Below, piece after piece: positions 14,011 to 36,224 of a stretch of 61,570 nucleotides of DNA. This DNA is from a virus. The position numbers and the translations under genes were made by a program. The stretch covers positions 1-61,570 of IMG/VR virus record IMGVR_UViG_3300023223_000518. One strand, written 5' to 3'. The notes below the pieces were generated by a model. It was given only the letters and a program-made list of their open reading frames with translations. It was not told the origin of the DNA and searched no databases. The first letter of the stretch is position 1. Each line of letters begins with the position of its first letter.

Positions 14011-14051
14011 CGCTCACGAGATCGCATAGTCCCTGAGCGGAGATATTCCCG

Positions 14052-14567: not shown

Positions 14568-14586
14568 GCGCAACGAGATCGACAGG

Positions 14587-24079: not shown

Positions 24080-24517
24080 ATGTTTAATTGCGAATGTGAA
24101 TCGCCCGGCAAGTGCCCGGTGTGGCGAAAAGAAATGGGTCCGGAGTTGCACTCGATTTGCCGCGGCGATCCGGATGCCCCGATTCATGAATCTGTCACTC
24201 GAGAGACATACCTTGATGCATGGATTCGAGAACTCGCGGATCAAGACCCGCCGTCATTGTACGCATCCGCGCGCCCATTCATGATCGCGCACAGAAACCA
24301 CATTGCGGCCGGCTCCCCTGAAGCGCCGGCGGCGATTGCTGCCGAGCGGCTGGCATTGTGCGAAGAATGCGACTTGCTCGATCCGAAGACTCTGCGATGC
24401 CGATCATGCGGCTGTTACGTCGAGAGGAAAACGAAATGGGCCGATGCCGAATGCCCGCTACCGGAGCCGGCGAAACGCTGGCGAGCATTGTCAATTATCC
24501 CGCAAATTATCCCGTAA
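24080..24517 (+). CDS. Cys-rich hypothetical protein (145 aa)
   Basis: GAGATCGAC (24071-24079) abuts the ATG. Contains CECESPGKC and CEEC...CRSCGC...CP. Confidence 0.5.
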   Translation: MFNCECESPGKCPVWRKEMGPELHSICRGDPDAPIHESVTRETYLDAWIRELADQDPPSLYASARPFMIAHRNHIAAGSPEAPAAIAAERLALCEECDLLDPKTLRCRSCGCYVERKTKWADAECPLPEPAKRWRALSIIPQIIP

Positions 24518-24554
24518 ATTATCGGCAAGCATGGCAAGATAGGAAAGCCGACGG

Positions 24555-25616
24555 ATGAACGATCTGGATATACCCGGAATTACAATCCGCCAAGCCCCGA
24601 ATCTGCTGATCGGAAAGCCGCTCTTCGCGGAGGGCCGACAGGAAGGTGTGACCGCGATTGATCCGGCGCATCCGCCGCCGGCGTCTCAGAGCGGCTCTCA
24701 GAGCCGCGAGTGCTGTAACAAATCTGTAACAAACGAGCCGGAAATTCGGTCGGACGGGATCATCCCCGGATTCTGGCACCCATCGCAGCATCGATCGAAG
24801 GGTTGGCTCGCGAATGGACGTGACGAGCCGGCGGATTGCCTGCATGGCACGTTCCGCAATCGTGCGTGTTTCTTGATCGGTGGCGGTCCATCGCTGAAGA
24901 CTCAAGACCTTTCGATCCTCGATCGACGCGGCGTGATGATGGCGGCGATGAACGCGGTTGCAGGCAATCCGGAAATACGCATCCGTCCGCATCTCTGGTT
25001 TAGCGTCGATCAACTGTCGAACTTTCATCCATCAATCTTCAGCGATCCGGCGGTCATGAAGTTCATCCGGCATTCGTGGCGGGTGAAGCCGACGCGACGA
25101 GCGGATCGAGACGATGAACTGAAGCGCGGCGGTCCGCAAGCGCGAAAGCATCCACGCTGTTACTTCTACGATTACAAATTCGATTCGTTCACGGGCTCGA
25201 ATTTCCTCACGCGGCCGAAACCTCCGTGGGGTTATGAATGGAGCCGTGGTCGCGGTGACAGGAACAAGACCCGCTCTGTGATGTTCTCAGCGATCTATAT
25301 TCTCTATTGGCTGGGCTTCCGCACGATCTTTTTGCTCGGCGTCGATCTCAAGATGAAGCCGGGAAAAGAATACGCGTGGAACGCCGGCATCAAAAGCGGG
25401 TCCGGATATTCCGCCGGGAACAATCTCTCGTTCGATGGACTGTTGCGGTTCTTCGCAAAGACGAAATTGCACTTCGAAGATTCCGGATTGCGGATTCACA
25501 ACTGTTCGGCGGCGAGCCGCTTGACGCTCTACCCGCGGATCGCTTTGCGCGATGCTGTCGAGTACATGGCGGAGCGATCACCGGAGCCGACTCGCGTGAA
25601 GGGGCTCTATTCTTAG
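24555..25616 (+). CDS. DUF115 (MptE/Maf-like) putative glycosyltransferase
   Basis: Contains FLIGGGPSLKTQDL and SVMFSAIYILYWLGFRTIFLLGVDL. Confidence 0.55.
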   Translation: MNDLDIPGITIRQAPNLLIGKPLFAEGRQEGVTAIDPAHPPPASQSGSQSRECCNKSVTNEPEIRSDGIIPGFWHPSQHRSKGWLANGRDEPADCLHGTFRNRACFLIGGGPSLKTQDLSILDRRGVMMAAMNAVAGNPEIRIRPHLWFSVDQLSNFHPSIFSDPAVMKFIRHSWRVKPTRRADRDDELKRGGPQARKHPRCYFYDYKFDSFTGSNFLTRPKPPWGYEWSRGRGDRNKTRSVMFSAIYILYWLGFRTIFLLGVDLKMKPGKEYAWNAGIKSGSGYSAGNNLSFDGLLRFFAKTKLHFEDSGLRIHNCSAASRLTLYPRIALRDAVEYMAERSPEPTRVKGLYS

Positions 25617-25755
25617 ATCGCGGTTTACAATCAAGGCGATATCGCATAAAGTGCTTCGCGCCGGATCAGCGGATGGGCCCAGCGTTGCTTGGCGAACCAT
25701 TCATGGATGGTAAGCGGCCTCAGGGTCATCCGTTGACCGGCTTTCGAGATCGACG

Positions 25756-26496
25756 ATGACCGGAATTAGCATCATCACATGCACGAGCGATCGGCCCGAA
25801 GCGTTCGCGCTTTGCGAACGATGGATGTCCCAGCAGACGGAAGTATTGGACGCGGCGCTGTTCCACTGGAGTTCGAAGTTCGGCGTCGAGTGGATCGTCT
25901 CCGATGATGGGCGCGAGCCGGCGAATTGCACGATGGGGCAAATCCATTTGCGCCATCACCCGCAATCGCAGCCGGCGAACTCGTTCAGACGAAATCTGAT
26001 CGCCGGCTTGAATGCCGCGACGATGCCAGTGATCGCCTTTATTGAAGATGACGACTGGTACGCTCCGGATTATCTGTGGGCTGCACACGAGACGATCACC
26101 ACGGGCGATCGGATAATCTGGGGCGAGAACGTCGCGCGCTATTACAACGTTCGCCAACGGATGCACTCGGCATTCCATCAAGAGCATCGCGCCTCGTTGT
26201 GTCAGACGGTCATGCGGAGTGAGCTCCGAAGCGTGATAGTCGATCACTTTAAGAGACATCCTGATTCGTTCCACGTTGACTTTGCGCTGTGGACTCACGT
26301 GCGGCGAAAGTTGCGCGGCAAAGCGTTCCTGACTTCGCAGTGTCGATCGGTCGGAATTAAAGGGATGCCCGGCAAACGGAATCTGGGGGTCGGCCGCGAC
26401 ATGCATCAATGCGGAGGAAAGCCCGATCCGCGGCTGAAGATTCTGGAAACGTGGATCGGGGACGACGTCGAAGCATATGAAGGATTCGGACGATGA
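25756..26496 (+). CDS. glycosyltransferase family 2-like
   Basis: Contains ISIITCTSDRPE and FIEDDDWY (DxD). GAGATCGAC (25746-25754) lies 1 nt upstream of the ATG. Confidence 0.55.
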   Translation: MTGISIITCTSDRPEAFALCERWMSQQTEVLDAALFHWSSKFGVEWIVSDDGREPANCTMGQIHLRHHPQSQPANSFRRNLIAGLNAATMPVIAFIEDDDWYAPDYLWAAHETITTGDRIIWGENVARYYNVRQRMHSAFHQEHRASLCQTVMRSELRSVIVDHFKRHPDSFHVDFALWTHVRRKLRGKAFLTSQCRSVGIKGMPGKRNLGVGRDMHQCGGKPDPRLKILETWIGDDVEAYEGFGR

Positions 26497-26681
26497 AAGA
26501 ATGCGACGATAATCAGACAGCGCGGCATCATGTCAACGCATCGGCTGTCAGATTGCAAGAGGCGATTGAACATCTTGCGCGCATCGTAGTTGATCGATGT
26601 GAAGACAGCGAAGACTACAACGCCGACGCAGCTCGGCAAATTCTCAATCTGATGATCGAAGCAAGGAACATCACATTGTGA
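26493..26681 (+). CDS. hypothetical protein (62 aa)
   Basis: ATGA-coupled. Acidic and helical. Confidence 0.4.
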   Translation: MKECDDNQTARHHVNASAVRLQEAIEHLARIVVDRCEDSEDYNADAARQILNLMIEARNITL

Positions 26682-27667
26682 AGATCGCCCTCTGTGAAAC
26701 GAAGCCGACGCCGCGCGGGGATTACATCCTCGATTGCCTGCGCGCCGGATTCGAGAGGCACGATGAGAACGTCTACAATCTGCGGTTGGCTGATCCAATC
26801 GAAGCGCTCGACCTGATGGACGTCGCCGTGATGATCTGCGCTCCGAACCCCGCAGACAAGACAACAAAACAGATGATCCGCCGACACGAGATATGGGACC
26901 GAAGCCGCATTGTCGGCCGGCCGATACTCGTGATCGATTCCGGGTTCTTCCACACGCAAGCGGATGCGGAGATGCGTGATGGATTCAAAGCCGACCGACA
27001 CGGCGGGTTCACCCGATTCGACAAGAGCGTTTACTATCAACTCGGCTGGAACGGCTTCAAGCGCACCGCATTGCTCCCTACGAACAACCTCAAGAGATTC
27101 CACGGGCTGTCGATTCGAATTCAGAAACCGCAGATCATCGACACCACGCGGCCGATCATCATCATCGGACAGCCGGATCAAGGCGTCTCGTGCTGGGATG
27201 TCAATCTCGTCGGCATGTACCGCGATCTCGTAGAACGGCTCCGCGAAATCTGTAATTGCACGGGCGAGATCAGATTCCGGCAGCATCCTAGAATCTTCAA
27301 AGATGCTCGCCGCTTTCCGATGCAGGCGAAATGGACGCGGCGGTTCTTCGGGCACGATGTCACGTTCTCAACGCACGTTGATATCGCTGAAGACCTGCGG
27401 GACATCGGGACTGCGTTCGTCTATTCATCCAACGCGGCCGTGCAAACCGTCATCCGTGGAATCCCAACGTTCGTTGAATCCGACGATTGCCCGGCGTGGC
27501 CGGTCTCTTGCGGGGAGTGGAAGCTGTTCCCCACCGAACCGACTCCGCCGACGATGACCATGATAGAGTGGGCGCAACAGATCGCGGCGTCACAATGGAA
27601 TTGTTCCGAGATGGCGAACGGCTCCGCGTGGAAAGAACTCAAGGCAAGGATACCGGTGAAACGATGA
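26678..27667 (+). CDS. GT-B-like / capsule-synthesis-like transferase, paralogue of 31243..32130
   Basis: GTG start. The C-terminal VYSSNAAVQTVIRGIPTFVESDD parallels VTFGSNAAVESICHGVPAVVIGDG in the paralogue. Confidence 0.45.
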   Translation: MKIALCETKPTPRGDYILDCLRAGFERHDENVYNLRLADPIEALDLMDVAVMICAPNPADKTTKQMIRRHEIWDRSRIVGRPILVIDSGFFHTQADAEMRDGFKADRHGGFTRFDKSVYYQLGWNGFKRTALLPTNNLKRFHGLSIRIQKPQIIDTTRPIIIIGQPDQGVSCWDVNLVGMYRDLVERLREICNCTGEIRFRQHPRIFKDARRFPMQAKWTRRFFGHDVTFSTHVDIAEDLRDIGTAFVYSSNAAVQTVIRGIPTFVESDDCPAWPVSCGEWKLFPTEPTPPTMTMIEWAQQIAASQWNCSEMANGSAWKELKARIPVKR

Positions 27668-27888
27668 GCGTTAGATACACATTTGAATGTTACTCATGTC
27701 TGCGGACATCATCATCCGCCGTGGGTTCTGACGCATCCGATCGTTACGGGCCGCGCTGCGATCAATGTCGCGCAGCCGATCGCCACGGGCCATCGCTGTC
27801 AGACTTCTCAATCACATGGGGGTTGCGGATCGGTGCCGTACTGTTGGTTGTCGGATTCGTCCAGTTGATGGAGTTTCTTTCGCAATGA
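27664..27888 (+). CDS. zinc-ribbon + TM small protein (74 aa)
   Basis: ATGA-coupled. Contains CYSC...CDQC, then the TM helix LRIGAVLLVVGFVQL. Confidence 0.45.
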   Translation: MSVRYTFECYSCLRTSSSAVGSDASDRYGPRCDQCRAADRHGPSLSDFSITWGLRIGAVLLVVGFVQLMEFLSQ

Positions 27889-28742
27889 TCGAAGACCAGA
27901 TTCTTTTCGCTACGACGGCATCGTTCGATCTGTTCGAAGTGAGCGGCCCGGAGTTCGTTTCTTCGTTCGGCCAACAACACGCGAAATCCGGGCACAAGCT
28001 GTGGATGGGCCTTGAGGGAATCGAGATCGGCGCGACGCAGCATTTCATCATTCATGACCTCGACACCGATGACATGCTCGCCACCTTCTTACGTCAGAAT
28101 GCGGATGTGATTCCCGAATATCTAGGTGGCAATATGAAGCCGTGCGATTGTCCAGATACGAAAGACGCGGACGGGAAAGAGATAAGACACGCGCGACATC
28201 GATCGATCGACAAGCGAGAGTCGCCAGGGCCGAATTACAAGTGGGCCGCGAGCAAGTGCCATTATCAGTGGATGAATCGAAACGCCAGCCGATGGTTCCG
28301 CAAGGTCGTCACTCTCTATCGCGCGGCGAGTGCCGGACAGCACCGATATCTCGTTTGGTGTGACATCGATTGCCGATTCCTTGCACCGATGAGCGTCCGG
28401 AATCTGACGAGTAAATTTCTGCGAGGCAAAGCGATCGCGTATTTCAAGGGTCCGAAACGCGAAGCGCCGGAAGTTGGGGTCGTGTGCTTCGATCTGCAAG
28501 ACGGCGGGCTCGAATTCATCAGTCGGTACATGCATCGATACACGAGCCGTCGATACTTGGCTTGGCATCGCTGGGACGATGGGTTCATCTTCGGAACTCT
28601 GATAGCGGATCACTATCAGGATATTTCTATCGATCTGGTGACTGACGGCCGATCGACGAACGTGATTCCGCTGACTCCGATGCGGGAGTTTGTACACCAC
28701 CGAAAAGGATTTCATGGAAGACAGCTCGGAATTATGAAGTAG
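27885..28742 (+). CDS. putative GT-A glycosyltransferase (DxD)
   Basis: ATGA-coupled. Contains YLVWCDIDCRFL. Confidence 0.4.
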   Translation: MIEDQILFATTASFDLFEVSGPEFVSSFGQQHAKSGHKLWMGLEGIEIGATQHFIIHDLDTDDMLATFLRQNADVIPEYLGGNMKPCDCPDTKDADGKEIRHARHRSIDKRESPGPNYKWAASKCHYQWMNRNASRWFRKVVTLYRAASAGQHRYLVWCDIDCRFLAPMSVRNLTSKFLRGKAIAYFKGPKREAPEVGVVCFDLQDGGLEFISRYMHRYTSRRYLAWHRWDDGFIFGTLIADHYQDISIDLVTDGRSTNVIPLTPMREFVHHRKGFHGRQLGIMK

Positions 28743-29295
28743 CGCGCCTCAGTTTGTTCCGTTTCGATTCGCACGGTTTGCATTGATGACACAGTCCGTG
28801 AACTTGACAACGATTCTTATGAAACTCGCACCGCAATTTATAAGTTTCGCACGTGCCACACCAAGCCATGCCGTCGGGTGCATGTACGTTGTGGTTCCCC
28901 AGTGCGAGCCGCGAATTCTCGGCAAGCGGTATCAGCCGAATGTTACCGAACTCATAATGCCCGCCGTTGATTCGATCGATGCTCGGTTGTCGATCACCGA
29001 AGTCAAACACATAGATCGGCCAAGATGCAACGAACCACGCGATGAAATCGTCGCGGCTGATTCTGATCTCGACATCGGCATACGTTGGATTCTTTCCGTC
29101 GCTGTTCCGCTCGCGTTGCTTCATCGTGGAATAGATGGCCGTTGCTCGTTTGCCCGGCGTTTGGTATTCGCGTCGACTGCGGAGCAGCAAACACGGTTTG
29201 CATTCGTTCAAACGTCCGTCGCGCATTTTGCAGTTGCGGTGGAACTCATCGAGCGGCTTGACCTGCTCGCAGACTTTGCATTGTTTCTCAGACAT
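28732..29295 (-). CDS. HNH homing-type endonuclease
   Basis: Antisense to the surrounding operon. GAGGAG SD upstream of the ATG at 29295. SIDRINGGHYEFGNIRLIPLAEN is the HNH core, flanked by two CxxC...dG...CxxC modules. Confidence 0.65.
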   Translation of the reverse strand: MSEKQCKVCEQVKPLDEFHRNCKMRDGRLNECKPCLLLRSRREYQTPGKRATAIYSTMKQRERNSDGKNPTYADVEIRISRDDFIAWFVASWPIYVFDFGDRQPSIDRINGGHYEFGNIRLIPLAENSRLALGNHNVHAPDGMAWCGTCETYKLRCEFHKNRCQVHGLCHQCKPCESKRNKLRRATS

Positions 29296-29390
29296 GATCG
29301 CTGCTCCTCGAAAGTGGCGATTGTTAGGGCGGGCCGGTACCAACGCCGGCTCGCCCGATCTTATCACACATGCCATTGAGGTGGAATCCA

Positions 29391-29618
29391 ATGTCCGATC
29401 GCATTCGAATCGCGGAGGCACTGCGGGAACTTGCAGGACGGATCGAAGATAGCGAGATGCATTGCGAGGTCTGGATATTTGCTAAAGCCAAACCGGTTCA
29501 CGATGATGATGGAGTTGTCATCGATCATGTTCACCTTGGAGACGCCATCTTGCTTCGATGCGATGACGCGCCCGACGATTTAGGATTCGATAAGGGTGAA
29601 CCATTCTTGAAGTGTTAA
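29391..29618 (+). CDS. hypothetical protein (75 aa)
   Basis: GAGGTGG SD upstream of the ATG at 29391. Confidence 0.45.
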   Translation: MSDRIRIAEALRELAGRIEDSEMHCEVWIFAKAKPVHDDDGVVIDHVHLGDAILLRCDDAPDDLGFDKGEPFLKC

Positions 29619-29631
29619 TAGGATTTATGAA

Positions 29632-29799
29632 ATGAATCGCTTCCCAGTTGACAAGACCGATGAGATCATGATTCCGATCGATAGGGAAAACGGCGAGAAG
29701 CTCGGCGTAGATATGAGATTTCCGAAAGACATTACGCCTGAAGAGTGGAACATCGTTATTGAACGGGCCTCGAAACGCATTGGGAATTTGCAGGAATGA
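29632..29799 (+). CDS. hypothetical protein (55 aa)
   Basis: Below the track cutoff. ATGA-coupled to 29796. Preferred over minus-strand ORF 29625..29978. Confidence 0.4.
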   Translation: MNRFPVDKTDEIMIPIDRENGEKLGVDMRFPKDITPEEWNIVIERASKRIGNLQE

Positions 29800-31019
29800 A
29801 AGAAATCGACGGGCTGTACTTTCCGGATGCCGACACGCACTTTGAGGAATTGTGCCGGCGGAAGGGAATCAAGGTCGCTCAGTATCAGACGGATCGGATT
29901 GCCGCGGCGATCGTCTATTCCCTTGACGTCGCCGGCTCCGATGTCTGCATTGAGGTCGGGGCTCACGTTGGCATCCATACACGATTACTTGCGGCACAAT
30001 TCAAGCAAGTCTACGCGATCGAAGCGCATCCGCTGAATTACGAATGCCTCGTGCGCAACACGCTGGACCTGGACAACGTTACCACGCTTGCGAGTGCGAT
30101 CACAGCCAAAGACGGCGAGACTCGGATTGATAACCCGGTTGATGGAAATACCGGCAACTTGCAGATAGGCGGCAACGGACCGCGAGTGCCGGGCGTGACG
30201 CTGGATTCGCTCGGGTTGCCGATCCCCGATCTATTGAAGATCGACGTGCAGGGTGCCGAACTGCGGGTACTGTCCGGAGCGCGGCGCTTGCTGATCGCTG
30301 GGTCTCCGGCCGTGCTTTTCGAAGAAGAACCGCCCGGCAAGTTGCGGCGAGCGCTTGCCAAGTCGAACGCGGCACAAACTTATCTCTTGAAACTCGGCGG
30401 CAAGATCGTATGGACGGCCGGAGCGGATGCGATCGCGACGTTTCCCGATGGAGCTTGGCCTTACACGAAATATTCGGAGCAAGGCGAGTACCATTGGAAG
30501 CATTACGAGAGCGGGAAATTCCGAGTGATTATCGATTGGGTCGGTTGCTATGTCGGATCGAAGAATCATGATTCCATCGTCGACATCGGATGCGGAGATG
30601 GTGTGTGGTCGGGCGTCATCAACCTGCATGCGTCTAATCTGGACGGCAAGACGCCGGCATTCGGAATCGACCGCGACACGAGAGCGATTCAATGCGCGAA
30701 ACAACGCAGCGTGCCGGTTCATGTCGGCTCAGCGCATCGACTGAGCAAATTCGATTTCGATGCCGCTCTGTTGGTAGATGTTTTGGAGCACATCCCGTGG
30801 CCCGAGCGTGTCATCGGTGATCTACGCCGCCGATCAATCCGCGACGTCTACGTGGTCAATCCGGACCCGAACGGATCACGCTGGCACATCAATGAATTTG
30901 AACAGGATGAAATGTCCGACGCGTTCGAACGGCAGGGATACCGTGTCGAGCGTCGCGAAGACTTCATCATAACGAGCCGAAATCACAAAACGTTTTTCCA
31001 TTTCAGACTGGACGAATAA
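29796..31019 (+). CDS. two-domain methyltransferase (FkbM-like + class I SAM-dependent)
   Basis: N-terminal domain has IEVGAHVGIHT...AIEAHPLNYECLVRN...LLKIDVQGAEL. C-terminal domain has IVDIGCGDGVWSG...LLVDVLEHI. Confidence 0.65.
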   Translation: MKEIDGLYFPDADTHFEELCRRKGIKVAQYQTDRIAAAIVYSLDVAGSDVCIEVGAHVGIHTRLLAAQFKQVYAIEAHPLNYECLVRNTLDLDNVTTLASAITAKDGETRIDNPVDGNTGNLQIGGNGPRVPGVTLDSLGLPIPDLLKIDVQGAELRVLSGARRLLIAGSPAVLFEEEPPGKLRRALAKSNAAQTYLLKLGGKIVWTAGADAIATFPDGAWPYTKYSEQGEYHWKHYESGKFRVIIDWVGCYVGSKNHDSIVDIGCGDGVWSGVINLHASNLDGKTPAFGIDRDTRAIQCAKQRSVPVHVGSAHRLSKFDFDAALLVDVLEHIPWPERVIGDLRRRSIRDVYVVNPDPNGSRWHINEFEQDEMSDAFERQGYRVERREDFIITSRNHKTFFHFRLDE

Positions 31020-31246
31020 TGCCATTGCCAATCGTGGAAATCAAAGTGAATGATTATGGTGGTAGTCCGGCCGCGGATCACAACATGCCTTGCCCGATCT
31101 GTCACGCCGCCTATCAACGCAAGGCGACGTTGTCGCTAAACACGGGCCGCTTTCACCCATGCAGAGAATGCCGGCGCGTCGGGTGGATCACGATTCGTGT
31201 TCCGGGATTCGTGAAGTGGCTTTTGAAAAGGTGGCACGAATTATGA
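31019..31246 (+). CDS. zinc-finger small protein (75 aa)
   Basis: Contains CPIC...CREC. Confidence 0.45.
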   Translation: MPLPIVEIKVNDYGGSPAADHNMPCPICHAAYQRKATLSLNTGRFHPCRECRRVGWITIRVPGFVKWLLKRWHEL

Positions 31247-32130
31247 AAGTCGGTTTCTACGCATCGATCGGCAAGCGCTACGACATGGGGCTATTCGAGC
31301 ATTTCGGACCCGGCGTGACAGCGTGCGGCGACGAGATTCGATTGCTCGACATCCACAAAGATGCGACCGTAATCGATGACCTCGACGTGATCATCGTCGT
31401 CGGCGTCAAAGACAAATCGCTACCGACATGGCAAGCGAACCAAGCGGCCGGCAAGCGATGCGTGATACTCGATAAGGGTTACACGCGGCTCCGCGGCGGA
31501 GTTTTGAATACGCGATTCTGGCGTGTGTCGCTGGATGCGTTCCAACCTACCGAGCGGCTATGCACCGGACCGCAGAGATCGCCTGATCGTTGGCTTAAGA
31601 CTGGCGTTCCGGTCGTTCCGTGGCAGCGCGATGATGGTGATACGGTCGTCTTTTGCGGATCTTCTCAAAAGTACAACAACTGGCACGAACTCGGCGAATC
31701 GACCGCGTACGCAACGAAGATCATGAATAAGCTGAAAGAGATCACGAAAGGGCAATTCACCCTCGTGTACCGTCCAAAGCCGTCATCGAAGGAAGCTAAG
31801 GATTGTATCGACATTCCCGGATTCCGATTCAGTCCCCCGAAAGACAGCCTGCCGAATTACACAGACACGACTGCGCATTGCATCGTGACGTTCGGGAGCA
31901 ACGCGGCCGTGGAATCGATCTGTCATGGCGTGCCGGCGGTCGTCATTGGAGACGGAGTCGCGCGGCCGATCAGCAGTCAACGGTTGCAGGACGTGTTGAA
32001 TCCATTCAAGGCGGATCACGATTCAGTTCTTCAATGGCTGGCGAATCTGGCGTACTGGCAATGGGAGCCGGCTGAGATGCTGGCGGGTAAGTGCTGGCGA
32101 TTCTTGCGCGGGGAGATCGAACGTGAGTGA
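31243..32130 (+). CDS. GT-B-like / capsule-synthesis-like transferase, paralogue of 26678..27667
   Basis: ATGA-coupled ATG at 31243. Shares the C-terminal motif with 26678..27667. Confidence 0.45.
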   Translation: MKVGFYASIGKRYDMGLFEHFGPGVTACGDEIRLLDIHKDATVIDDLDVIIVVGVKDKSLPTWQANQAAGKRCVILDKGYTRLRGGVLNTRFWRVSLDAFQPTERLCTGPQRSPDRWLKTGVPVVPWQRDDGDTVVFCGSSQKYNNWHELGESTAYATKIMNKLKEITKGQFTLVYRPKPSSKEAKDCIDIPGFRFSPPKDSLPNYTDTTAHCIVTFGSNAAVESICHGVPAVVIGDGVARPISSQRLQDVLNPFKADHDSVLQWLANLAYWQWEPAEMLAGKCWRFLRGEIERE

Positions 32131-32218
32131 GCAAACGAAACGACGTCTCGCGCTGATCGGCATGTTCCTTTTGGCCACGGTTGCAATGATGCTAATGCTC
32201 TGGGGACTCTATCGATGA
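32123..32218 (+). CDS. mini membrane peptide (31 aa)
   Basis: GGGAGATCGA (32111-32120) lies 2 nt upstream of the GTG. Product VSEQTKRRLALIGMFLLATVAMMLMLWGLYR. ATGA-coupled to the sulfotransferase gene. Confidence 0.35.
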   Translation: MSEQTKRRLALIGMFLLATVAMMLMLWGLYR

Positions 32219-32802
32219 TCGATCTGAAACCACCATACGGCGGCGACGGAAGACTGTGCCCGCTTGTCGTGACAGGGACACCGCGGAGCGGTACGAAATT
32301 CATCTGTACGGCGCTTCGCAACGCTGGCAAGCACATCAAGCACGAAAGCGCCGGCGGGGAAGATGGGCTCGTCGATTGGATGTGGCTGTTCCGAGAGCGG
32401 AATCCAGACCGGGTCGATCGGTTGATACTGCAAGTTCGGGAACCGGTCGCCTGCATCCGATCGATCGCGATCCATCCGGATAAGATTCACGATTGGCTGT
32501 GTGCCGTCGTGCCGATCAATAAGCATGACTCGCCGATCAAGCGAGCGGCTCAATTCTATCTCTACTGGAATAGCCTGTTGTTGTCGATGTGCGACGATTG
32601 GTATCAGTTGGAAGATCGCATCGAATGTATGCGGTGCCTTTCCCCATTCGGTTTGAAGGAATGGCATCTCGACGGGGCAGATCAGAATCGGAACGAAGGT
32701 CCGGCCCATGCTTTGGGCGGGCTCATTGATCTTGTTGGTGAGATCGACAAATTCACCAGAGCGGGCTTGATGCGGCTCGCCGAAACTCTCGGGTATGAAT
32801 AA
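32215..32802 (+). CDS. sulfotransferase
   Basis: VVTGTPRSGTKF is a PAPS 5'-phosphosulfate loop. LQVREPVACIRSI is 3'-PB-like. Confidence 0.6.
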   Translation: MIDLKPPYGGDGRLCPLVVTGTPRSGTKFICTALRNAGKHIKHESAGGEDGLVDWMWLFRERNPDRVDRLILQVREPVACIRSIAIHPDKIHDWLCAVVPINKHDSPIKRAAQFYLYWNSLLLSMCDDWYQLEDRIECMRCLSPFGLKEWHLDGADQNRNEGPAHALGGLIDLVGEIDKFTRAGLMRLAETLGYE

Positions 32803-33119
32803 TGCTGAACGAGATCGAAGCCCACTTTATGACGGCCGCGGAGATCGCGGAGACCGTCGACATCGTTGATGCGTTACTCGCCGTTCAAGTGAACTCTGTG
32901 GAGCCGGAGAAGTTCTCACGCACGGTCGTTGATGCCGTCGCGGTGAATATCATTGAAGCGTGGAAGAACAGGCACAAGACAGCGATCGACGATGAGGCGT
33001 CGTGCAGATTCACCACGCTACCTGACAAACGGATTCAATGCGTTGTCGCCGCTCAAGGTCGGACGAAACAAATCGCTGGCCGATCGGCGATGGCGCAAAT
33101 CACCAAGGCACTGAGGTGA
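32802..33119 (+). CDS. hypothetical protein (105 aa)
   Basis: The ATG overlaps the upstream TAA. Confidence 0.45.
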   Translation: MLNEIEAHFMTAAEIAETVDIVDALLAVQVNSVEPEKFSRTVVDAVAVNIIEAWKNRHKTAIDDEASCRFTTLPDKRIQCVVAAQGRTKQIAGRSAMAQITKALR

Positions 33120-33121
33120 TC

Positions 33122-33982
33122 ATGCTCAACCCAAGGATATTCATCGGCTGTGATTCGCGCGAGATGATCGCAGCGGAAGTCGCCGCGCATTCATTCCGGC
33201 GATGCATGCCGGGCTATGAGATCGTGTTTCTCACGAAAGAACTCTGTGCGGAGTTCGGATTCACGCCCGATGGGCGGCCAGGTTCAACTGAATTCACATA
33301 CACTCGGTTTCTCGTTCCGTGGCTGTGCGGGTTCAAGGGCTTGGCGCTCTTCGTGGATTGCGATGTGTTGATGTTGAGAGAGCCCTCGCCAGTTGGCGCG
33401 GAAGATCAAAGCGCCGATTACGATCTGCATTCGCTGTCGAATTCTCTGGACATGACGCAGCACGCGCTCGCGGTCGTTCCTCACTTCTACGTTCCGTCAT
33501 CGTCATCGAAGATGGACGGCCAGCGACAACACGCATACTTCCGCAAGCTGTGGTCTGCTGTGATGCTGTTGCATTGCGAGCGACTTGAGCCGTATTGGCC
33601 GAAAGAAGTTGTCGAGAAGGAATCGCCGGCATTGCTCCACGGCTTCACGAATATTCCGACTGACGAGATTGGCGAACTGCCGGCGGCGTGGCATTGCTTG
33701 GAACCGAAGAAAGCGATCGGATTGAGCAAGCCGATCGAAGGTGAAAGCGGACTCAGCATGTGCCATGATGAATACAAGGCAATACTGTTTCACTACACCG
33801 AGGGCGGTCCGTGGTTCGAGAAATACGCTGCCTGCCCATTCTCTGGCCGATGGTACGAAGAATTCGAGTTGATCTATGGGAAAGGTTCTGCGGAAACGTT
33901 CAAGAACTGCGTGCGAGATTCCGGTTGTGGTAATTGGGAAAGGCTCGTCAGTGACCCATATTCCGGCATCATCAGAATTTAA
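33122..33982 (+). CDS. glycosyltransferase family 8-like
   Basis: GAGGTGATC SD. Contains YTRFLVPWLCGFKGLALFVDCDVLML (DxD). Confidence 0.55.
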   Translation: MLNPRIFIGCDSREMIAAEVAAHSFRRCMPGYEIVFLTKELCAEFGFTPDGRPGSTEFTYTRFLVPWLCGFKGLALFVDCDVLMLREPSPVGAEDQSADYDLHSLSNSLDMTQHALAVVPHFYVPSSSSKMDGQRQHAYFRKLWSAVMLLHCERLEPYWPKEVVEKESPALLHGFTNIPTDEIGELPAAWHCLEPKKAIGLSKPIEGESGLSMCHDEYKAILFHYTEGGPWFEKYAACPFSGRWYEEFELIYGKGSAETFKNCVRDSGCGNWERLVSDPYSGIIRI

Positions 33983-34529
33983 GATCGCGGCTTGTTCAGA
34001 AGCGATCAGGATGTGCGATCGTGCCGACTGGCTGGCCGTGAATGATGTGCCGGCTTTCGAATCGCTTGACGCCAGCGATTTACGTCGAGCCGATGCGATC
34101 GTACTGCCGAACTTCCTGCACGTCACGCCCCCGCCGATCAAGCCGGGGCCGAATGATCTGCATTGCTTCCGATCGCATACGACGTTCGCGCCGGCAATCA
34201 GCGCGGCGAAATGTAAGCTGATCACCTATTGCCTACACACCGATCCTTACGTTGCTGAGAATTCGCGCCGACTTCCGTTCTTCGGTCGATGCCGGAGCAT
34301 CTCGGATTCTCTAATCGCTTACTTGCTCTACCTGGGGCATCGGGAGATCGTGACGACCGGGATCGAATGGAATGGAGCCGCGCGCTATCATCCCGATTTC
34401 CGCCGGCAAGTTGCGAAGACGGTACGGCATCGTAAAGCGATCTGGTCAGACACAGTGAAGCGGATCATAACTGCCGGCGGAAGCGTGTTCCGCTGGGAGG
34501 ATTCGAGGATCAATCCGGAGAATCAGTAA
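33876..34529 (+). CDS. second DUF115-like protein (start uncertain)
   Basis: Contains VVVIGKGSSVTHI and SISDSLIAYLLYLGHREIVTTGIEWNG. Overlaps the upstream gene by ~107 nt, so an internal GTG start is possible. Confidence 0.4.
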   Translation: MGKVLRKRSRTACEIPVVVIGKGSSVTHIPASSEFKIAACSEAIRMCDRADWLAVNDVPAFESLDASDLRRADAIVLPNFLHVTPPPIKPGPNDLHCFRSHTTFAPAISAAKCKLITYCLHTDPYVAENSRRLPFFGRCRSISDSLIAYLLYLGHREIVTTGIEWNGAARYHPDFRRQVAKTVRHRKAIWSDTVKRIITAGGSVFRWEDSRINPENQ

Positions 34530-34530
34530 G

Positions 34531-35214
34531 ATGGCGACAACCGACGTATTCACATTCACATGCCCGCATTGCTCGTCAGAAGCGACGTGCAATCGCACGC
34601 GTTGCACCGATGTGATGTGCCCGAATTGCGGCAACGACATGAGCGGTTCGGAAGACGCCGACGTTGAGGACATGTATGAGGCGGCTACATCGATCGGGAC
34701 AGAGGATGGTCCGGGGGCGGCGACTGCCGGCACTAAACTTGAAAAGTTCCTTCACGAAGATATGGCGCGCAACATGTCTCCGGAATGGGCCGATAAGAAC
34801 TGGGGCAAAGTCCGGCACGTCTTCAACGACGACGGCTTCTCATTCTCTGATCTGCGGGTTGTCGCCGGTGAGCGTTGCTCGTTGCACTTTCATGAAGAGC
34901 GCGCCAACACGTTTCAATGCGTCGATGCGCAGTTAATTGTTGAATGGTGGGGGCCGACCAATCAATGCTCGCGGCAAGACCCGCTCGGATGGCAGTATGA
35001 AGAAACGAACCGCTATTTTTTGCATCCGCTTGAGAGTCCGATGCAATCTATTTTGTTGGGAGAAGGGGCTTGTCTTGTCATCGAGCCGATGATCTGGCAC
35101 CGCTTCCGAGTCGTCAAGCCGGGCACTTTGCTTGAATTGTATTTCGCACAACCGGGCAAGACCGTTCGGCTCGACGACATCATCCGCTTCGATAAAGGGG
35201 GGCCGGATCGATGA
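34531..35214 (+). CDS. zinc-ribbon + cupin-domain protein (sugar isomerase/epimerase-like)
   Basis: N-terminal CPHC...CPNC. Cupin motif VVAGERCSLHFHEERANTF. Confidence 0.5.
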   Translation: MATTDVFTFTCPHCSSEATCNRTRCTDVMCPNCGNDMSGSEDADVEDMYEAATSIGTEDGPGAATAGTKLEKFLHEDMARNMSPEWADKNWGKVRHVFNDDGFSFSDLRVVAGERCSLHFHEERANTFQCVDAQLIVEWWGPTNQCSRQDPLGWQYEETNRYFLHPLESPMQSILLGEGACLVIEPMIWHRFRVVKPGTLLELYFAQPGKTVRLDDIIRFDKGGPDR

Positions 35215-35303
35215 TCACGACAACGCTTCACCATTTCCTTCTCGTGCTGTGCTGTCTCGGTTGTCTTCGCATCGGATATGTTTTCGGAGAATTGCGTCGA
35301 TGA
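35211..35303 (+). CDS. mini membrane peptide (30 aa)
   Basis: ATGA-coupled at both ends. Product MITTTLHHFLLVLCCLGCLRIGYVFGELRR. Confidence 0.3.
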   Translation: MITTTLHHFLLVLCCLGCLRIGYVFGELRR

Positions 35304-35941
35304 TCATCATCATTCTCGGAGCCGGCGCTTGCGGCATCGCTTCGTTCGTACATTTCCTGAATCAGCAACAATCAACGCTGATCTCGAAAGAACGCGGCCT
35401 CGAGGGAGCGGCGTGGTCTGGAGGTCTATCGCATGAACTGGATTTGTTCGACCATCTCGTCGCGGACCAAGTCAAGCGGCCGGATGCTGTCCACGGAGAC
35501 GCCGGGTTCTATCATCTGAACTATGTACACGAGTTGCATCAGCGATACGATGGGAAGATTCTTTTCGTTTCCCTTCAACGCGATACCGGCGAGACATTCG
35601 ATGATTGGTCGGGCGATCTCGCGAAATCTTGGAGCAACACGAATCCGCTTTGCGAATCGACGCCGATCTGCGGGCCGAACTTTAAGCCGTCTCCGCTCGC
35701 ACATCTGTACCCATCGATCGGAATCGGCGATCAAGAACTTGCGGCCGCTCACTACATTTCTATGTATGTCAGCGCGACACACTGGCTTGAAGAACAACTC
35801 GGCGGGCGGTTGATCCATCTCCCGACTTCGCTGCTTGATGATGAAGCGGGCCAGACGGATATCCTCGACGTGCTCGGGTATCCGGATGTAGGCCGAACGC
35901 TGATTCCCGGCGGCGTTGACGTTCACAAGGGCAAGGTCTGA
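35300..35941 (+). CDS. possible third sulfotransferase-like protein
   Basis: Weak motifs only: IIILGAGACG, ILFVSLQRDTGETFDDW, and a C-terminal LLDDEAGQTDILDVLGYPD. Confidence 0.3.
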   Translation: MIIIILGAGACGIASFVHFLNQQQSTLISKERGLEGAAWSGGLSHELDLFDHLVADQVKRPDAVHGDAGFYHLNYVHELHQRYDGKILFVSLQRDTGETFDDWSGDLAKSWSNTNPLCESTPICGPNFKPSPLAHLYPSIGIGDQELAAAHYISMYVSATHWLEEQLGGRLIHLPTSLLDDEAGQTDILDVLGYPDVGRTLIPGGVDVHKGKV

Positions 35942-36223
35942 TCAATCGCCTTGCCGCTTCACGCGAGCGGCTGTTGGTCCAGCATCTTCACCCGTAAGAT
36001 GGACCCGATGCTCGCATTGTTGCAAGGCAATTCGATATTGGTTGGCCGTGCATCTTTGCCACAGATACGTTCTGACTGCGTTGCGTGGCAATTCCGGAGC
36101 GTTAGCGAAGATTTCCTTATCAATCCCAACGGCCAGCGGAACATACTTTCCGAACGCGAGTGGGTAATGCGCTTTGAGAAAGGTGCTAATTTGATCGAGC
36201 TTCTTCTGTGGCACTTTTCGCAT
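35942..36223 (-). CDS. ProQ/FinO-domain RNA-binding protein
   Basis: 93 aa. ISTFLKAHYPLAFGKYVPLAVGIDKEIF...NAVRTYLWQRCTANQYRIAL...HRVHLTGEDAG follows the FLxxxFPxxF..PLxIGIxxD(L/I)...LRxxLxxYTxxxxY...RxDLxG pattern of the ProQ N-terminal domain. The ATG lies 1 nt after the upstream stop. Confidence 0.65.
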   Translation of the reverse strand: MRKVPQKKLDQISTFLKAHYPLAFGKYVPLAVGIDKEIFANAPELPRNAVRTYLWQRCTANQYRIALQQCEHRVHLTGEDAGPTAARVKRQGD

Positions 36224-36224
36224 T

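Follow-up and report, generated by a model that had tools for sequence, protein, structure and literature searches.

A probable glycan-building, methylating and sulfating gene cassette next to the tail genes of a phage genome

What does a phage make with a block of carbohydrate enzymes encoded directly 3' of its tail region, and on which molecule would the product be placed? The question is raised by the window, the whole stretch of 61,570 nucleotides analysed here (IMG/VR record IMGVR_UViG_3300023223_000518). It is a complete phage genome (circular assembly, 144-bp terminal overlap) to which no GenBank phage is closely related. Its positions 24080-35941 form a densely packed gene block, the island (Table 1), which very probably is a functional cassette that builds, methylates and sulfates a glycan. 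A preliminary description of this DNA was right about the existence of the island, which consists of real genes, 11 of them conserved in a second phage; its details and interpretation are borne out in part.

Layout and enzyme families of the island

The island begins 7 nt after the 1147-aa gene, the next after the tape-measure gene, which agrees with the plus-strand block placed behind the tail genes in the preliminary description. A total of about twenty plus-strand enzymes in a row was too high: there are 17 plus-strand ORFs, about 10 or 11 of them plausible enzymes, the others being small ORFs, and the block is not purely plus-strand, being interrupted by one minus-strand homing-endonuclease gene. 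Junctions include four 4-nt ATGA/GTGA overlaps and two 1-nt ATAATG overlaps, the remainder being short gaps. GC and GC3 of the island are those of the adjoining tail gene. Island and structural genes lie on a common strand, with translational coupling within the island, and this gene arrangement suggests late co-transcription with virion genes.

Table 1. Features of the island, with positions in the window.
Position	Strand	Feature	Basis or grade
24080..24517	+	Cys-rich DUF6171-like protein, 145 aa, first gene past the 1147-aa tail-region gene	Pfam, PHROG
24555..25616	+	MptE/DUF115-like, 353 aa, resembles Maf and CstII (CMP-sugar transferase-like)	weaker assignment
25756..26496	+	GT2-family (GT-A) glycosyltransferase, 246 aa, EDDD motif	solid assignment
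26493..26681	+	62-aa ORF, ATGA-coupled at both ends, this phage only	weak PHROG match only
26678..27667	+	GT-B-like paralogue A, 329 aa, KpsC-like fold family, RQHPR 'HP' motif retained	solid assignment; paralogy with 31243, family membership
27885..28742	+	Orphan-family DxD protein, 285 aa, candidate GT-A-like transferase	motif-level only
28732..29421	-	Endonuclease VII/HNH-like homing endonuclease, inserted in the island	phrog_1035
29370-29618	+	82-aa ORF, this phage only	no significant family match
29632-29799	+	55-aa ORF, this phage only, ATGA-coupled to the methyltransferase gene	no significant family match
29796..31019	+	Fusion of FkbM-type methyltransferase (residues ~50-176) and class I SAM methyltransferase (~255-360), 407 aa	solid assignment
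31019..31246	+	75-aa zinc-ribbon-like ORF (CxxC...CxxC), this phage only	no significant family match
31243..32130	+	GT-B-like paralogue B, 295 aa, fold nearest retaining beta-Kdo glycosyltransferases	solid assignment; AlphaFold2, Foldseek
32215..32802	+	Minimal PAPS-type sulfotransferase, 195 aa	solid assignment; motifs, transitive Pfam matches, Foldseek
32802..33119	+	105-aa ORF, this phage only	weak PHROG match only
33122..33982	+	GT8-like (retaining GT-A) nucleotide-sugar transferase, 286 aa	weaker assignment
33876..34529	+	217-aa protein, VVVIGKGSS and LGHREIVTTGIE motifs, possible mini DUF115/GT42-like	motif-level only
34531..35214	+	227-aa protein, N-terminal zinc ribbon and metal-binding cupin (HxH...E...H)	weaker assignment
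35300..35941	+	213-aa ORF, hydrophobic GAGACG N-terminus	last plus-strand ORF ahead of minus-strand ProQ-like gene

All motifs named in the preliminary description (GGGPSL, IGKGSS, FIEDDDWY, FVDCDVLML, WCDIDC, TGTPRSGTKF and SNAAV..G(I/V)P) are found in the sequence, and its carbohydrate-enzyme island with methylation and one sulfotransferase is supported. The GT2-like protein that it proposed exceeds the Pfam cut-off of 23.3 for Glycos_transf_2 (E 8.6e-6, 26.2 bits) and has orthologues in the compared loci L001 (51% identity) and L007 (30%). Both halves of the proposed methyltransferase fusion are likewise above Pfam cut-offs (Methyltransf_21, E 2.9e-12; Methyltransf_23, E 9.4e-10), with a match to TIGR01444 fkbM_fam (E 1.6e-21), and the fusion occurs also in L001, L005, L006, and L008.

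The MptE/CstII-like and GT8-like assignments are weaker, the near-threshold matches all converging on the same families. The 24555 protein falls slightly under the Pfam cut-off for MptE-like (E 1.9e-7, 31.4 bits; cut-off 34.6); its L001 orthologue gives E 7.2e-8, and phrog_4603 'alpha-2,3-sialyltransferase' matches at E 1e-6. C. jejuni CstII is a weak PDB profile match (E 0.2) with the GGGPSLK and LGFRTIFLLGVD motifs aligned, and homologues are carried by L001, L006, and L007. A second DUF115/Maf-like protein had been claimed at 33876, where the likeness consists of two motifs: hhalign against the MptE-like protein gives a probability of just 1.8%, and Pfam, PHROG, and NCBIfam give no match. 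This protein is 69% identical to that of L001 over its full length, including the region in which its gene overlaps the GT8-like gene by 107 nt, and 34% identical to a 190-aa gene of L006. The claimed GT8-like family stands, at the weaker grade, on phrog_28018 (E 3.3e-30) and on a PDB search with a 6-sequence profile, in which four of the top matches are GT8 proteins (WbbM, E 0.1; glycogenin-2, twice; 5gvv) aligned over the RFLxP, FxDxD, and HxT..GPW motifs. The L003 homologue matches Glyco_transf_8 (E 1e-3), and cultured phages have homologues with the annotation (nucleotide-diphospho-sugar) glycosyltransferase.

For the DxD protein, the motif noted earlier is confirmed, W-x-D-x-D being invariant, with D160/D162 invariant in the family; its identity as a transferase stays at motif level. 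None of 97 homologues has a Pfam domain, and the PDB matches to GT-A enzymes, near the DxD motif, are sub-significant (sll0501, E 0.16; PBCV-1 A64R, E 0.26). Homologues of this protein and of the GT-B-like family co-occur on the same contigs.

The proposed pair of capsule-synthesis-like GT-B paralogues was a good guess in view of the closest folds given below. Paralogy of A and B is established by cross-phage tblastn (2.6e-9) and alignment. Orthologues of A occur in L001, L005, L006, L008, and the cultured Caulobacter phage CcrSC, and part of the homologues of B are tagged PF20471/DUF6716. The AlphaFold2 model of B (pLDDT 95.1, pTM 0.91) has KpsC (E 1.3e-9, TM ~0.5), KrkA, and WbbB as best Foldseek matches in PDB. 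In the PDB profile search its C-terminal 'THGSNA..EA..GVP' region aligns with GT1 enzymes (E 0.2-1), and its BFVD matches are uncultured phage proteins, a Tetraselmis virus 'capsule polysaccharide biosynthesis protein', and CcrColossus. Beta-Kdo transferases have a catalytic Asp in their QXXXD motif that is not conserved in either paralogue (QKYNN in B, GQxxxG in A), so Kdo is only a putative donor.

These structures make the host envelope a possible acceptor. The island's transferases, if soluble, could modify lipid-linked LPS, O-antigen, or capsule intermediates at the cytoplasmic membrane face, adding or capping residues (a Kdo-like terminal sugar, methyl, sulfate) on a product that host exporters would carry out. 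In ABC-transporter pathways, the export of O-antigen is controlled by a terminal Kdo or methyl cap, which supports this rather unlikely reading, as does the frequent use of GT8 and GT2 enzymes in LPS and polysaccharide synthesis. Bacterial relatives of the DxD protein adjoin TagF-like, nucleotidyltransferase, HAD, ABC-transporter, and epimerase genes (glycopolymer loci), and KpsC and WbbB, the nearest structural relatives of the GT-B-like pair, act on lipid-linked capsule or O-antigen glycans, not on proteins (PMC10148158, PMC9587256). If envelope remodelling were true, altered receptors would lead to superinfection exclusion, to less progeny lost on debris, or, in temperate carriers, to lysogenic conversion.

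The 'clear' sulfotransferase of the preliminary description is upheld by motifs, transitive Pfam matches, and structure. The protein has no direct Pfam match and only three close relatives among 5.8 billion sequences. It has 668 remote relatives, and among the 92 scanned, 25 match Sulfotransfer_3 (best E 3e-7), four Sulfotransfer_1, and four Sulfotransfer_4. Residues G21, R24-S25-G26-T27, H43-E44, and R75-x-P77...S83 (PSB/PB motifs) are near-invariant in the family, and in PDB the AlphaFold2 model (pLDDT 92.5) has sulfotransferases as each of its top 35 Foldseek matches (best E 5.5e-4, TMq 0.4-0.5), other proteins being rare in the match list as a whole. Unlike the core cassette, this gene is confined to the present lineage. 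The weaker second sulfotransferase claimed at 35300 is unsupported: hhalign against the sulfotransferase profile gives 0.8%, Pfam, NCBIfam, PHROGs, and PDB give no match, and the ORF is missing from L001 and every other locus compared. Its Kyte-Doolittle maximum is 2.24 at residue 2.

The claimed cupin stands at the weaker grade, with a match to phrog_7851 (E 1.4e-5) and a weak resemblance to sugar isomerases (Pfam MannoseP_isomer, E 0.016; L001 orthologue, E 4.9e-4); it may be sugar isomerase/epimerase-like or oxygenase-like. Cupin relatives occur together with the DxD gene in L005, L006, and L013-L018. The possible oxygenase bears on a very unlikely use of the island, in which the glycan would be built on a modified base of phage DNA for restriction evasion. 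In phages, GT-A (GT8-like included) and GT-B enzymes glycosylate 5-hydroxymethylcytosine with mono- to trisaccharides, putative Kdo included, from clusters that can sit among structural genes (bioRxiv 10.1101/2023.12.21.572611). The window encodes other DNA methyltransferases, and in L001 a gene for a C5 DNA methyltransferase follows ~900 nt downstream of the island, but the window encodes no equivalent of that enzyme. Among the proteins scanned over the complete genome there is neither a C5-methyltransferase/5mYOX (TET) pair nor a thymidylate-synthase-like hydroxymethylase, and gene calls at six related cassette loci (L001, L003, L005-L008) include no TET/JBP-family gene. The cupin itself is of the classical HxH..E..H type and lacks a 2OG-oxygenase signature, and T4 beta-glucosyltransferase does not figure in the list of 50 structural neighbours for the GT-B-like model. 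The low likelihood given earlier to DNA hypermodification is in keeping with these results.

Recurrence of the cassette in other phages

L001, a second uncultured phage contig, has 11 island ORFs in the same order, at 42-69% amino-acid identity and all with intact reading frames in both phages, and the catalytic motifs of the cassette families are invariant over hundreds of relatives. These ORFs are real genes under selection. This conservation argues against the doubtful idea that the island is partly decaying cargo or serves another cytoplasmic target or product, such as a host protein, a small molecule, or a free or lipid-anchored glycan (for takeover or defence evasion). Several members are indeed orphan families, the island tolerates insertions (the homing endonuclease and five lineage-specific small ORFs), and the best Foldseek match of the sulfotransferase is a tyrosylprotein sulfotransferase, hence protein sulfation is possible. 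A single elaborated glycan is nevertheless indicated, because many glycosyltransferases co-occur with methyltransferases.

The two GT-B-like genes, DxD, FkbM methyltransferase, and GT8-like gene form a core that is a modular cassette of unrelated phages. L005, L006, L007, L008, L012, and CcrSC share core genes in otherwise unrelated surroundings, and neither their capsids nor their terminases are similar. Core versions occur in many uncultured phages (237 homologues of paralogue B and the 97 of the DxD protein) and in cultured Caulobacter jumbo phages, so the view of the cargo as unusual was overstated. The cassette is a previously uncharacterised version of a phage glycan-building gene block.

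It often comes straight after the tail genes, as in L001, L006, L007, and CcrSC. In L003/L004 the position is different, related genes being found upstream of the terminase gene, and the context of the jumbo-phage loci is uninformative. In L006, a temperate contig, the cassette sits between tail genes and integrase, a classic lysogenic-conversion spot that would suit modification of the host envelope. In CcrSC, a virulent jumbo phage, tail protein gp168 is followed by gp169-174 and then lysozyme, a place between tail and lysis genes that argues against it. The complete genome of the window yielded no integrase, so lysogenic conversion is unlikely for its phage.

Product and acceptor

No nucleotide-sugar or PAPS synthesis genes are present among the proteins scanned across the complete genome, in accordance with the earlier proposal that the host supplies these substrates. 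Scans of the complete genome turned up no flippase, polymerase, ABC exporter, or phosphoglycosyl transferase, and the only hydrophobic segment of transmembrane grade in the island proteins is at the N-terminus of the 213-aa ORF. The enzymes look soluble from their sequences and would act in the cytoplasm.

The evidence leans to the virion rather than the host envelope as acceptor. Besides the missing integrase, the phage itself supplies nothing that is membrane-associated, and the island looks like the 3'-terminal part of the late structural block, a position that would allow only a short time for export and surface turnover ahead of lysis. To our knowledge, about ten enzymes far exceed the needs of known seroconversion modules. 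Late cytoplasmic glycosylation of virion proteins with host nucleotide sugars and PAPS is therefore the reading tentatively preferred here.

The horizontally mobile cassette would be expressed late with the virion genes. In the host cytoplasm, the GT2, GT8-like, DxD, two GT-B-like, and one or two DUF115/CstII-like proteins would draw on host nucleotide sugars to assemble a hetero-oligosaccharide. One of the donors is probably a CMP-activated ulosonic or nonulosonic acid. The GT-B-like pair are fold relatives of CMP-Kdo-dependent transferases, and a CMP-sugar is hinted at because the cassettes of L006 and L007 include a CTP_transf_3 cytidylyltransferase and a nucleotide-sugar epimerase/dehydratase, respectively. 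Maf (DUF115) proteins are known for O-glycosylation of flagellins with nonulosonic acids. The methyltransferase fusion would then O-methylate the glycan with host SAM and, in this lineage only, the sulfotransferase would sulfate it with host PAPS. Most conjectural of these steps is the acceptor, the likeliest being the phage's own virion protein or proteins (tail, fibre, or head decoration), which would give the particle a coat of acidic glycan bearing methyl and sulfate groups. The chlorovirus protein A064R, which serves the synthesis of capsid glycans, contains both glycosyltransferase and methyltransferase domains. In cluster O mycobacteriophages, according to PMC11600133, citing Freeman et al. 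2023, an O-methyltransferase and three tandem glycosyltransferases modify capsid and tail-tube proteins. They offer a precedent for such a set acting on the virion.

Small ORFs and the homing endonuclease

The 24080 protein exceeds the Pfam cut-off of 27 for DUF6171 (E 1.6e-6, 28.8 bits), matches phrog_13558 (E 7.8e-13), and is 50% identical to a 145-aa gene of L001; 77- and 79-aa ORFs in other frames of the same interval are not the gene. The five small ORFs of 62, 82, 55, 75, and 105 aa have no counterparts in L001. A plus-strand ORF at 28783 is spurious, an antisense shadow of the homing-endonuclease gene. The latter matches phrog_1035 'endonuclease VII' (E 1.9e-21) and further endonuclease PHROGs and is outside the glycan pathway; in L001 it is represented by a zinc-finger remnant of ~108 nt.

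Complete genome and gene content of the island

The window begins and ends with the same 144 bp (1-144 and 61427-61570), an exact match that makes it a circular assembly of a complete genome of ~61.4 kb, so that statements on absent genes are meaningful. The recognisable phage genes include those for the capsid, portal, terminase, tape-measure and Mu F-like proteins (see the table), and the label 'siphovirus-like' is reasonable because none of the scanned proteins was recognisable as a sheath protein. Against 50,697 GenBank phage records, megablast of both the island and the structural half of the genome gave no match, and IMG/VR, scanned with the 1147-aa tail-region protein and the GT8-like protein one at a time, gave none either. 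Searching the window for tRNA genes, as a possible hint to the host, found none. Pfam scans of selected proteins from the rest of the genome found neither an integrase, nor genes for nucleotide-sugar or PAPS synthesis, nor a thymidylate-synthase-like hydroxymethylase or TET/JBP enzyme.

The island (24080-35941) holds 17 plus-strand ORFs, where about twenty had been counted in the preliminary description. It begins 7 nt past, and on the same strand as, the 1147-aa gene, which itself follows the tape-measure gene, and its junctions include four ATGA/GTGA overlaps and two ATAATG. The ORFs are judged to be real genes because eleven of them are found in the same order, at 42-69% amino-acid identity, in L001, a second uncultured phage contig (ENA, 62,859 bp). 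Also encoded on this contig are a tail-region protein of 61% identity and replication and recombination functions that the two phages conserve. The window phage alone has five small ORFs (62, 82, 55, 75, and 105 aa). GC and GC3 are equal between the island and the tail gene, and recent acquisition of the island was ruled out, its composition and GC3 being those of the flanking genes.

The earlier description of the island is largely right, subject to four corrections. Every motif quoted there was found, and the genes make up a true cassette of several enzymes, conserved between phages, that assembles, methylates and sulfates a glycan. The first gene is the DUF6171-like one. The earlier interpretation was right in part. 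The plus-strand ORF placed at 28783 is spurious, because a minus-strand gene for a homing endonuclease occupies the site. This enzyme has N- and C-terminal Cys4 fingers, and its gene is inserted in opposite orientation between the DxD and methyltransferase genes; at the corresponding place L001 has only a remnant of ~108 nt (7588-7695) encoding the C-terminal zinc finger. An Endonuclease_7 gene also lies near the cassette of L005, one of the other loci with cassette homologues.

At its right border the island varies between the two phages. The last island ORF, of 213 aa, is not conserved and has no detectable family; it had been put forward as a weaker second sulfotransferase, an assignment rejected on comparison with the sulfotransferase profile. 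Directly past its island, L001 has a short C5 DNA methyltransferase (PF00145) and a DUF5131 gene (13662-15279), both absent from the window, where the 213-aa ORF and a ProQ-like gene stand instead. The ProQ/FinO-family RNA chaperone, just past the island, and the CsrA-like protein are two global RNA-binding regulators, and their genes flank the region of lowest GC (51%).

Features of the window phage genome, in genome order
Feature	Position	Strand	Basis or remark
562-aa repeat protein, head-morphogenesis region	752-2440	+	16 tandem repeats of 22-24 aa
Major capsid protein	7358-9109		
234-aa ORF inside head-tail module	11783-12487	+	VVDADC (DxD-like) motif
Tape-measure protein	16776-20270		
DUF6171-like protein, first island gene	24080-24517	+	Pfam family match
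MptE/DUF115-like protein	24555-25616	+	Pfam PF01973, E 1.9e-7
GT2 protein	25756	+	Pfam PF00535, 26.2 bits (cut-off 23.3)
GT-B-like paralogue A, 329 aa	26678		
DxD protein	27885	+	Orphan family, invariant WxDxD
Endonuclease VII/HNH-like homing endonuclease	28732-29421	-	phrog_1035, E 1.9e-21
FkbM-type and class I SAM methyltransferase fusion, 407 aa	29796	+	Curated models
GT-B-like paralogue B, 295 aa	31243-32130		
Predicted minimal sulfotransferase, 195 aa	32215	+	Motifs, transitive Pfam, fold
GT8-like protein	33122	+	phrog_28018, E 3e-30
217-aa protein	33876	+	Two DUF115-like motifs only
Cupin with N-terminal zinc ribbon	34531	+	Weak mannose-phosphate-isomerase similarity
213-aa ORF	35300-35941		
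ProQ/FinO-family RNA chaperone	35942-36298	-	Pfam E 5.9e-11
CsrA-like protein	38752-38910	+	85% identical to L001 CsrA gene
DNA methyltransferase, ParB-domain fusion	44592-45974	+	phrog_498, E 3.8e-88
Large terminase	50118-51923		
N6/N4 DNA methyltransferase	54773-55588	+	Pfam E 1.4e-26
Portal	57632-59089		
Mu F-like protein			Among recognisable phage genes

Predicted enzymes of the cassette

The island enzymes differ in how closely they match established families. Assignment of the 407-aa protein as an FkbM/class I methyltransferase fusion is solid, with scores above the cut-off of each curated model (Methyltransf_21, 47.5 bits against a cut-off of 22.7; TIGR01444, 77.3 against 37.7; Methyltransf_23, 38.9 against 27). 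The GT2 protein, with its FIEDDDWY motif, also passes its Pfam cut-off, the match spanning residues 62-141 only. The MptE-like protein stays under the PF01973 cut-off of 34.6 bits (31.4 bits; 32.8 for its L001 orthologue), matches phrog_4603, annotated as sialyltransferase (E 1e-6), and aligns weakly to CstII over both signature motifs. It has the GxGPS(L) nucleotide-binding and LGxxxIxLxGxD motifs in common with Maf/CstII (DUF115/MptE-like, GT42), but falls far short of Maf in length, and an acceptor-binding domain is not recognisable in it. Maf and CstII enzymes use CMP-activated nonulosonic acids as donors, and Maf enzymes modify proteins in the cytoplasm. Homology of the 217-aa protein to DUF115, for which it had been taken as a second member, is not established: it has no PF01973 match whatsoever, and profile comparison gave no support.

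The GT8-like protein has no direct Pfam match, and its homologue in locus L003 matches PF01501 with E 1e-3 and 19.2 bits, under the cut-off of 24.3. When its profile was compared with the PDB, four of the top matches were GT8 proteins (E 0.1-1.4) with the canonical motifs aligned. The family conserves SRFLVP, F(V/L)DCD and H(W/F/Y)TEGGPW, the GT8 reference motifs being RxxxP..L, (F/Y)xDxD and HxxGxxKPW, and its cultured-phage relatives carry the annotation nucleotide-diphospho-sugar transferase. Between the GT8-like gene and the 217-aa gene there is an overlap of 107 nt, read in two different frames (33876-33982). Overlap and both frames are conserved in L001 (11336-11436), and the corresponding genes of L006 overlap by 46 nt (13217-13262), which suggests tight translational coupling of the two proteins. 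A programmed frameshift or a fusion of the two genes is less simple as an explanation than a conserved 107-nt overlap in which the second gene has its own ATG.

The DxD protein belongs to a family of 97 proteins, none with a Pfam domain, and GT-A matches around its invariant WxDxD motif are sub-significant only. DxD and GT-B-like families occur on the same contigs. Acidobacteria relatives of the DxD protein adjoin TagF-like, nucleotidyltransferase, HAD, ABC-transporter, and epimerase genes; these loci were dismissed as a pointer to the host, since they have the DxD gene alone in common with the island. The 234-aa ORF inside the head-tail module might be another glycosyltransferase; its likeness to the island DxD and GT8-like proteins is at motif level only, and Pfam, PHROG, PDB and profile comparisons were all non-significant.

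The two GT-B-like proteins are true paralogues. A profile search with the family found 237 relatives of ~285 aa, many on phage-sized contigs and some tagged as DUF6716 'putative glycosyltransferase'. The AlphaFold2 model of paralogue B is confident (pLDDT 95.1) and has a modified GT-B-like two-domain fold, with KpsC, KrkA, and WbbB as the top Foldseek PDB matches (E 1e-9 to 1e-6, TM ~0.5) and UDP-GlcNAc 2-epimerases next after these retaining beta-Kdo transferases. At the sequence level paralogue B has no similarity to KpsC/KpsS/WbbB/KrkA, and its C-terminal THGSNA..EA..GVP aligned with the GT1 donor-binding motif in a sequence profile below significance. A reduced GT-B-like architecture and duplicated modules are common to the paralogues and to KpsC, KpsS, WbbB, and KrkA (GT107/GT99), whereas the window proteins are phage-encoded and stand-alone, at ~300 aa.

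Beta-Kdo transferases have an invariant QXXXD motif in which the Asp is the catalytic nucleophile (PMC10148158). This Asp is conserved in neither paralogue: in the C-terminal domain, the loop that follows the first strand is G-S-S-Q-K-Y-N-N for paralogue B and G-Q-P-D-Q-G for paralogue A, and of 80 family members only 27 have Q at position 142, while 46 have D or E at position 146. The register is approximate, as it was aligned by hand to the KpsC peptide given in PMC10148158. In beta-Kdo transferases the His of the HP motif donates a proton to the CMP leaving group. This motif is found as R-Q-H-P-R in paralogue A and its relatives; paralogue B and 75/80 relatives have R-P-K-P-S, with Lys replacing the His. 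Because the QXXXD motif is variable and HP occurs only in paralogue A, the paralogues are, as far as their sequences tell, not bona fide GT99/GT107 members. The invariant D77, R177, P180, S219, and E278 of the family mark a conserved site that differs from that of the beta-Kdo transferases, and the family is well suited to asking if this fold has to work through the covalent Asp-Kdo mechanism.

The 195-aa protein has no direct match among curated models (Pfam, NCBIfam, PHROG), and a search of 5.8 billion sequences gave no more than three close relatives; an exact-sequence look-up returned no record. An exhaustive HMMER search found 668 remote relatives of ~190 aa, and the genomic context of two remote relatives consisted of 2-3 kb contigs only. 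When 92 remote relatives were scanned, 25 matched Sulfotransfer_3 (best E 3e-7), Sulfotransfer_1 and Sulfotransfer_4 were matched by four each, and some proved to be fused to glycosyltransferase or methyltransferase domains. The protein has a 5'-phosphosulfate-binding loop of the PxxSGTT type (T-G-T-P-R-S-G-T-K, residues 20-28), with G21, R24, S25, G26, and T27 near-invariant in the 92 relatives, and a 3'-phosphate-binding motif (R-x-P-x5-S; here V-R75-E-P77-V-A-C-I-R-S83) in which R75 and P77 are invariant and S83 is near-invariant. An H-E pair is likewise near-invariant. All top 35 Foldseek PDB matches of its model (pLDDT 92.5) are sulfotransferases, at modest scores (E 5.5e-4 to 1e-2, TMq 0.4-0.5), and the protein is ~60-100 residues shorter than these targets. 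It is accepted as a minimal sulfotransferase, predicted from motifs and modelled fold. Single-sequence phmmer searches of the PDB with this protein, the GT8-like protein, the 213-aa ORF, and the 234-aa ORF found nothing meaningful.

Distribution of the cassette in other phages

The cassette has a core of GT-B-like protein A, the DxD protein, the FkbM/class I methyltransferase, GT-B-like protein B, and the GT8-like protein, with GT2, MptE-like protein, extra methyltransferases, cupin, a CMP-sugar-type cytidylyltransferase, and epimerase/dehydratase as variable accessories. The core is found in L005, L006, L007, and L008/L012, and partial versions in L003/L004 and L013-L018. These loci (L003-L008 and L012-L018) have no detectable similarity to the capsid, terminase, or tail proteins of the window. 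Among the cassette loci compared, the sulfotransferase is confined to the lineage of the window and L001.

A mini cassette is also found in the cultured Caulobacter phage CcrSC (MH588547.2), at 118481-122967. Its genes gp169-gp174 lie between that of a large tail protein (gp168) and a lysozyme gene, in the order gp169 (GxGPS), gp170 and gp171 (GT-B-like), gp172 (GT8-like), gp173 (FkbM), and gp174, and are annotated as hypothetical save the FkbM methyltransferase. CcrSC and its relatives CcrBL9, C1, C2, and CcrColossus have a GxGPS protein, two KpsC-like paralogues, a GT8-like protein, and FkbM, as in the window; unlike in the window, sulfotransferase, GT2, DxD protein, and cupin are missing from the set, and identity to the window proteins is only 20-31%. 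The cassette is widespread and modular, with hundreds of metagenomic relatives and several unrelated phage backbones, cultured Caulobacter phages included.

The phiCbK genomics paper does not discuss the CcrSC cassette genes, and the literature searched contained neither a description of the cassette nor a characterised phage sulfotransferase. Within that literature, the cassette components had not been linked to phages; the KpsC-like GT-B, DUF115/CstII-like, and orphan DxD families were not previously tied to phage biology. The core cassette is uncharacterised, yet testable in Caulobacter phages: CcrSC carries the core, so its function can be addressed directly in a genetic model.

Possible acceptors of the glycan

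Phage glycosylation systems are known for DNA (T4-like, TET-linked clusters), and mycobacteriophage virions are a recent addition to the targets; sulfation, as predicted for the window and L001 lineage, would extend the repertoire, as would the breadth of the cassette and its enzyme families new to phage biology. The cassette lies directly after the tail genes in the window, L001, L006, and L007. Its glycosyltransferase and methyltransferase genes thus abut the virion module, as expected for virion glycosylation, and do so in CcrSC too.

In cluster O mycobacteriophages, according to PMC11600133 (citing Freeman et al. 2023), an O-methyltransferase and three tandem glycosyltransferases modify capsid and tail-tube proteins. 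With this precedent, glycosylation of virion proteins is the best single reading of the cassette, with somewhat less than even odds. Both systems, the other being that of cluster O and other mycobacteriophages, are siphovirus blocks of O-methyltransferase and tandem glycosyltransferases without their own nucleotide-sugar synthesis; the mycobacteriophage products act in the cytoplasm on capsid and tail-tube proteins. The window also has about twice as many enzymes, of different families (KpsC-like GT-B pair, DUF115/CstII-like, GT8-like, orphan DxD), and, unlike the mycobacteriophage system, a two-domain fusion methyltransferase and a sulfotransferase.

Glycosylation of DNA by the cassette is improbable. 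Phages do use this strategy, and putative Kdo adducts are known from it; DNA sugar-hypermodification clusters resemble the cassette in having GT-A/GT8-like and GT-B enzymes related to LPS enzymes, in drawing on host sugar pools, and in lying sometimes near structural genes (bioRxiv 10.1101/2023.12.21.572611). The defining genes of such clusters, however, are those of a C5-methyltransferase and a 5-methylpyrimidine dioxygenase; the sugars attached number 1-3, and no sulfotransferases are reported from these clusters (bioRxiv 10.1101/2023.12.21.572611). Among the proteins scanned in the complete genome, neither a pair of C5-methyltransferase and TET/JBP dioxygenase nor a dNMP hydroxymethylase was found (Pfam E <= 1e-3, a search whose sensitivity is limited to Pfam-recognisable enzymes), and the gene calls of L001, L003, and L005-L008 include no TET/JBP-family gene. 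The genome has two DNA methyltransferases, so the phage DNA is probably methylated, independently of the island.

The cassette could instead remodel host glycoconjugates, a reading that is less than likely and yet draws on several observations: KpsC and WbbB work on lipid-linked substrates, the DxD family has bacterial neighbourhoods, and the L006 cassette is integrase-adjacent. Against it stand the late placement of the island, the lack of encoded membrane components, and the integrase not found in the window. Seroconversion modules of temperate phages (Gtr-type or O-antigen-modifying) have integral-membrane GtrA/GtrB/Gtr-type proteins or an acyltransferase next to an integrase/attP, whereas no assigned island enzyme has a segment of transmembrane grade. 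Still another target is unlikely; protein sulfation is counted here because the top structural match of the 195-aa protein is a tyrosylprotein sulfotransferase.

The probable course of synthesis may be outlined as follows. A hydrophobic segment of transmembrane grade occurs in the island only at the N-terminus of the unassigned 213-aa ORF, and genes for a flippase, a polymerase, an exporter, or an initiating phosphoglycosyl transferase were not found in the complete genome. The chemistry must therefore be cytoplasmic, whether the acceptor itself resides there or the enzymes work on intermediates of the host. Expression would be late, together with the virion proteins, to judge from the coupled genes on the same strand and from the recurrent location where the tail module ends, which in CcrSC is just ahead of the lysis genes; scans for promoters and terminators gave no information on this, with fewer sites than in shuffled controls. 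The KpsC-like fold, the CstII/Maf-like motifs, and the cytidylyltransferase of L006 suggest a CMP-activated ulosonic or nonulosonic acid as donor. Hosts of the window phage are probably Gram-negative, unlike those of mycobacteriophages, and a Gram-negative host would supply CMP-Kdo. The L006 enzyme (CTP_transf_3) is the only, and an indirect, pointer to a CMP-beta-Kdo donor, and in view of the missing nucleophile motif CMP-Kdo is no more than a candidate.

In its fullest form, which is rather unlikely as a whole, the proposal is that a mobile cassette builds in the cytoplasm a self-encoded acidic virion glycan, O-methylated and sulfated; no sulfated glycan would have been reported from a bacteriophage particle before. 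The core of the cassette would be a new family of small GT-B enzymes with the fold of beta-Kdo transferases, without their Asp nucleophile and with another catalytic solution, and the same core would give non-sulfated virion glycans in many uncultured phages and Caulobacter jumbo phages. If the virion is the target, phage glycan coats may be far commoner outside Actinobacteria than thought, which would bear on adsorption, environmental stability, and immune recognition in phage therapy, and on how viral genes for glycosyltransferases and sulfotransferases of the 'auxiliary metabolic' kind are read.

The 562-aa protein of the head-morphogenesis region has no Pfam or PHROG match. Its repeats, of consensus ~AVTGVYSITGSVAATxxGxxLS, are seen at protein level only, a DNA-level tandem-repeat search of the gene being negative. 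It is 25% Ser+Thr, and may be a fibre or decoration protein and, speculatively, a candidate glycan acceptor.
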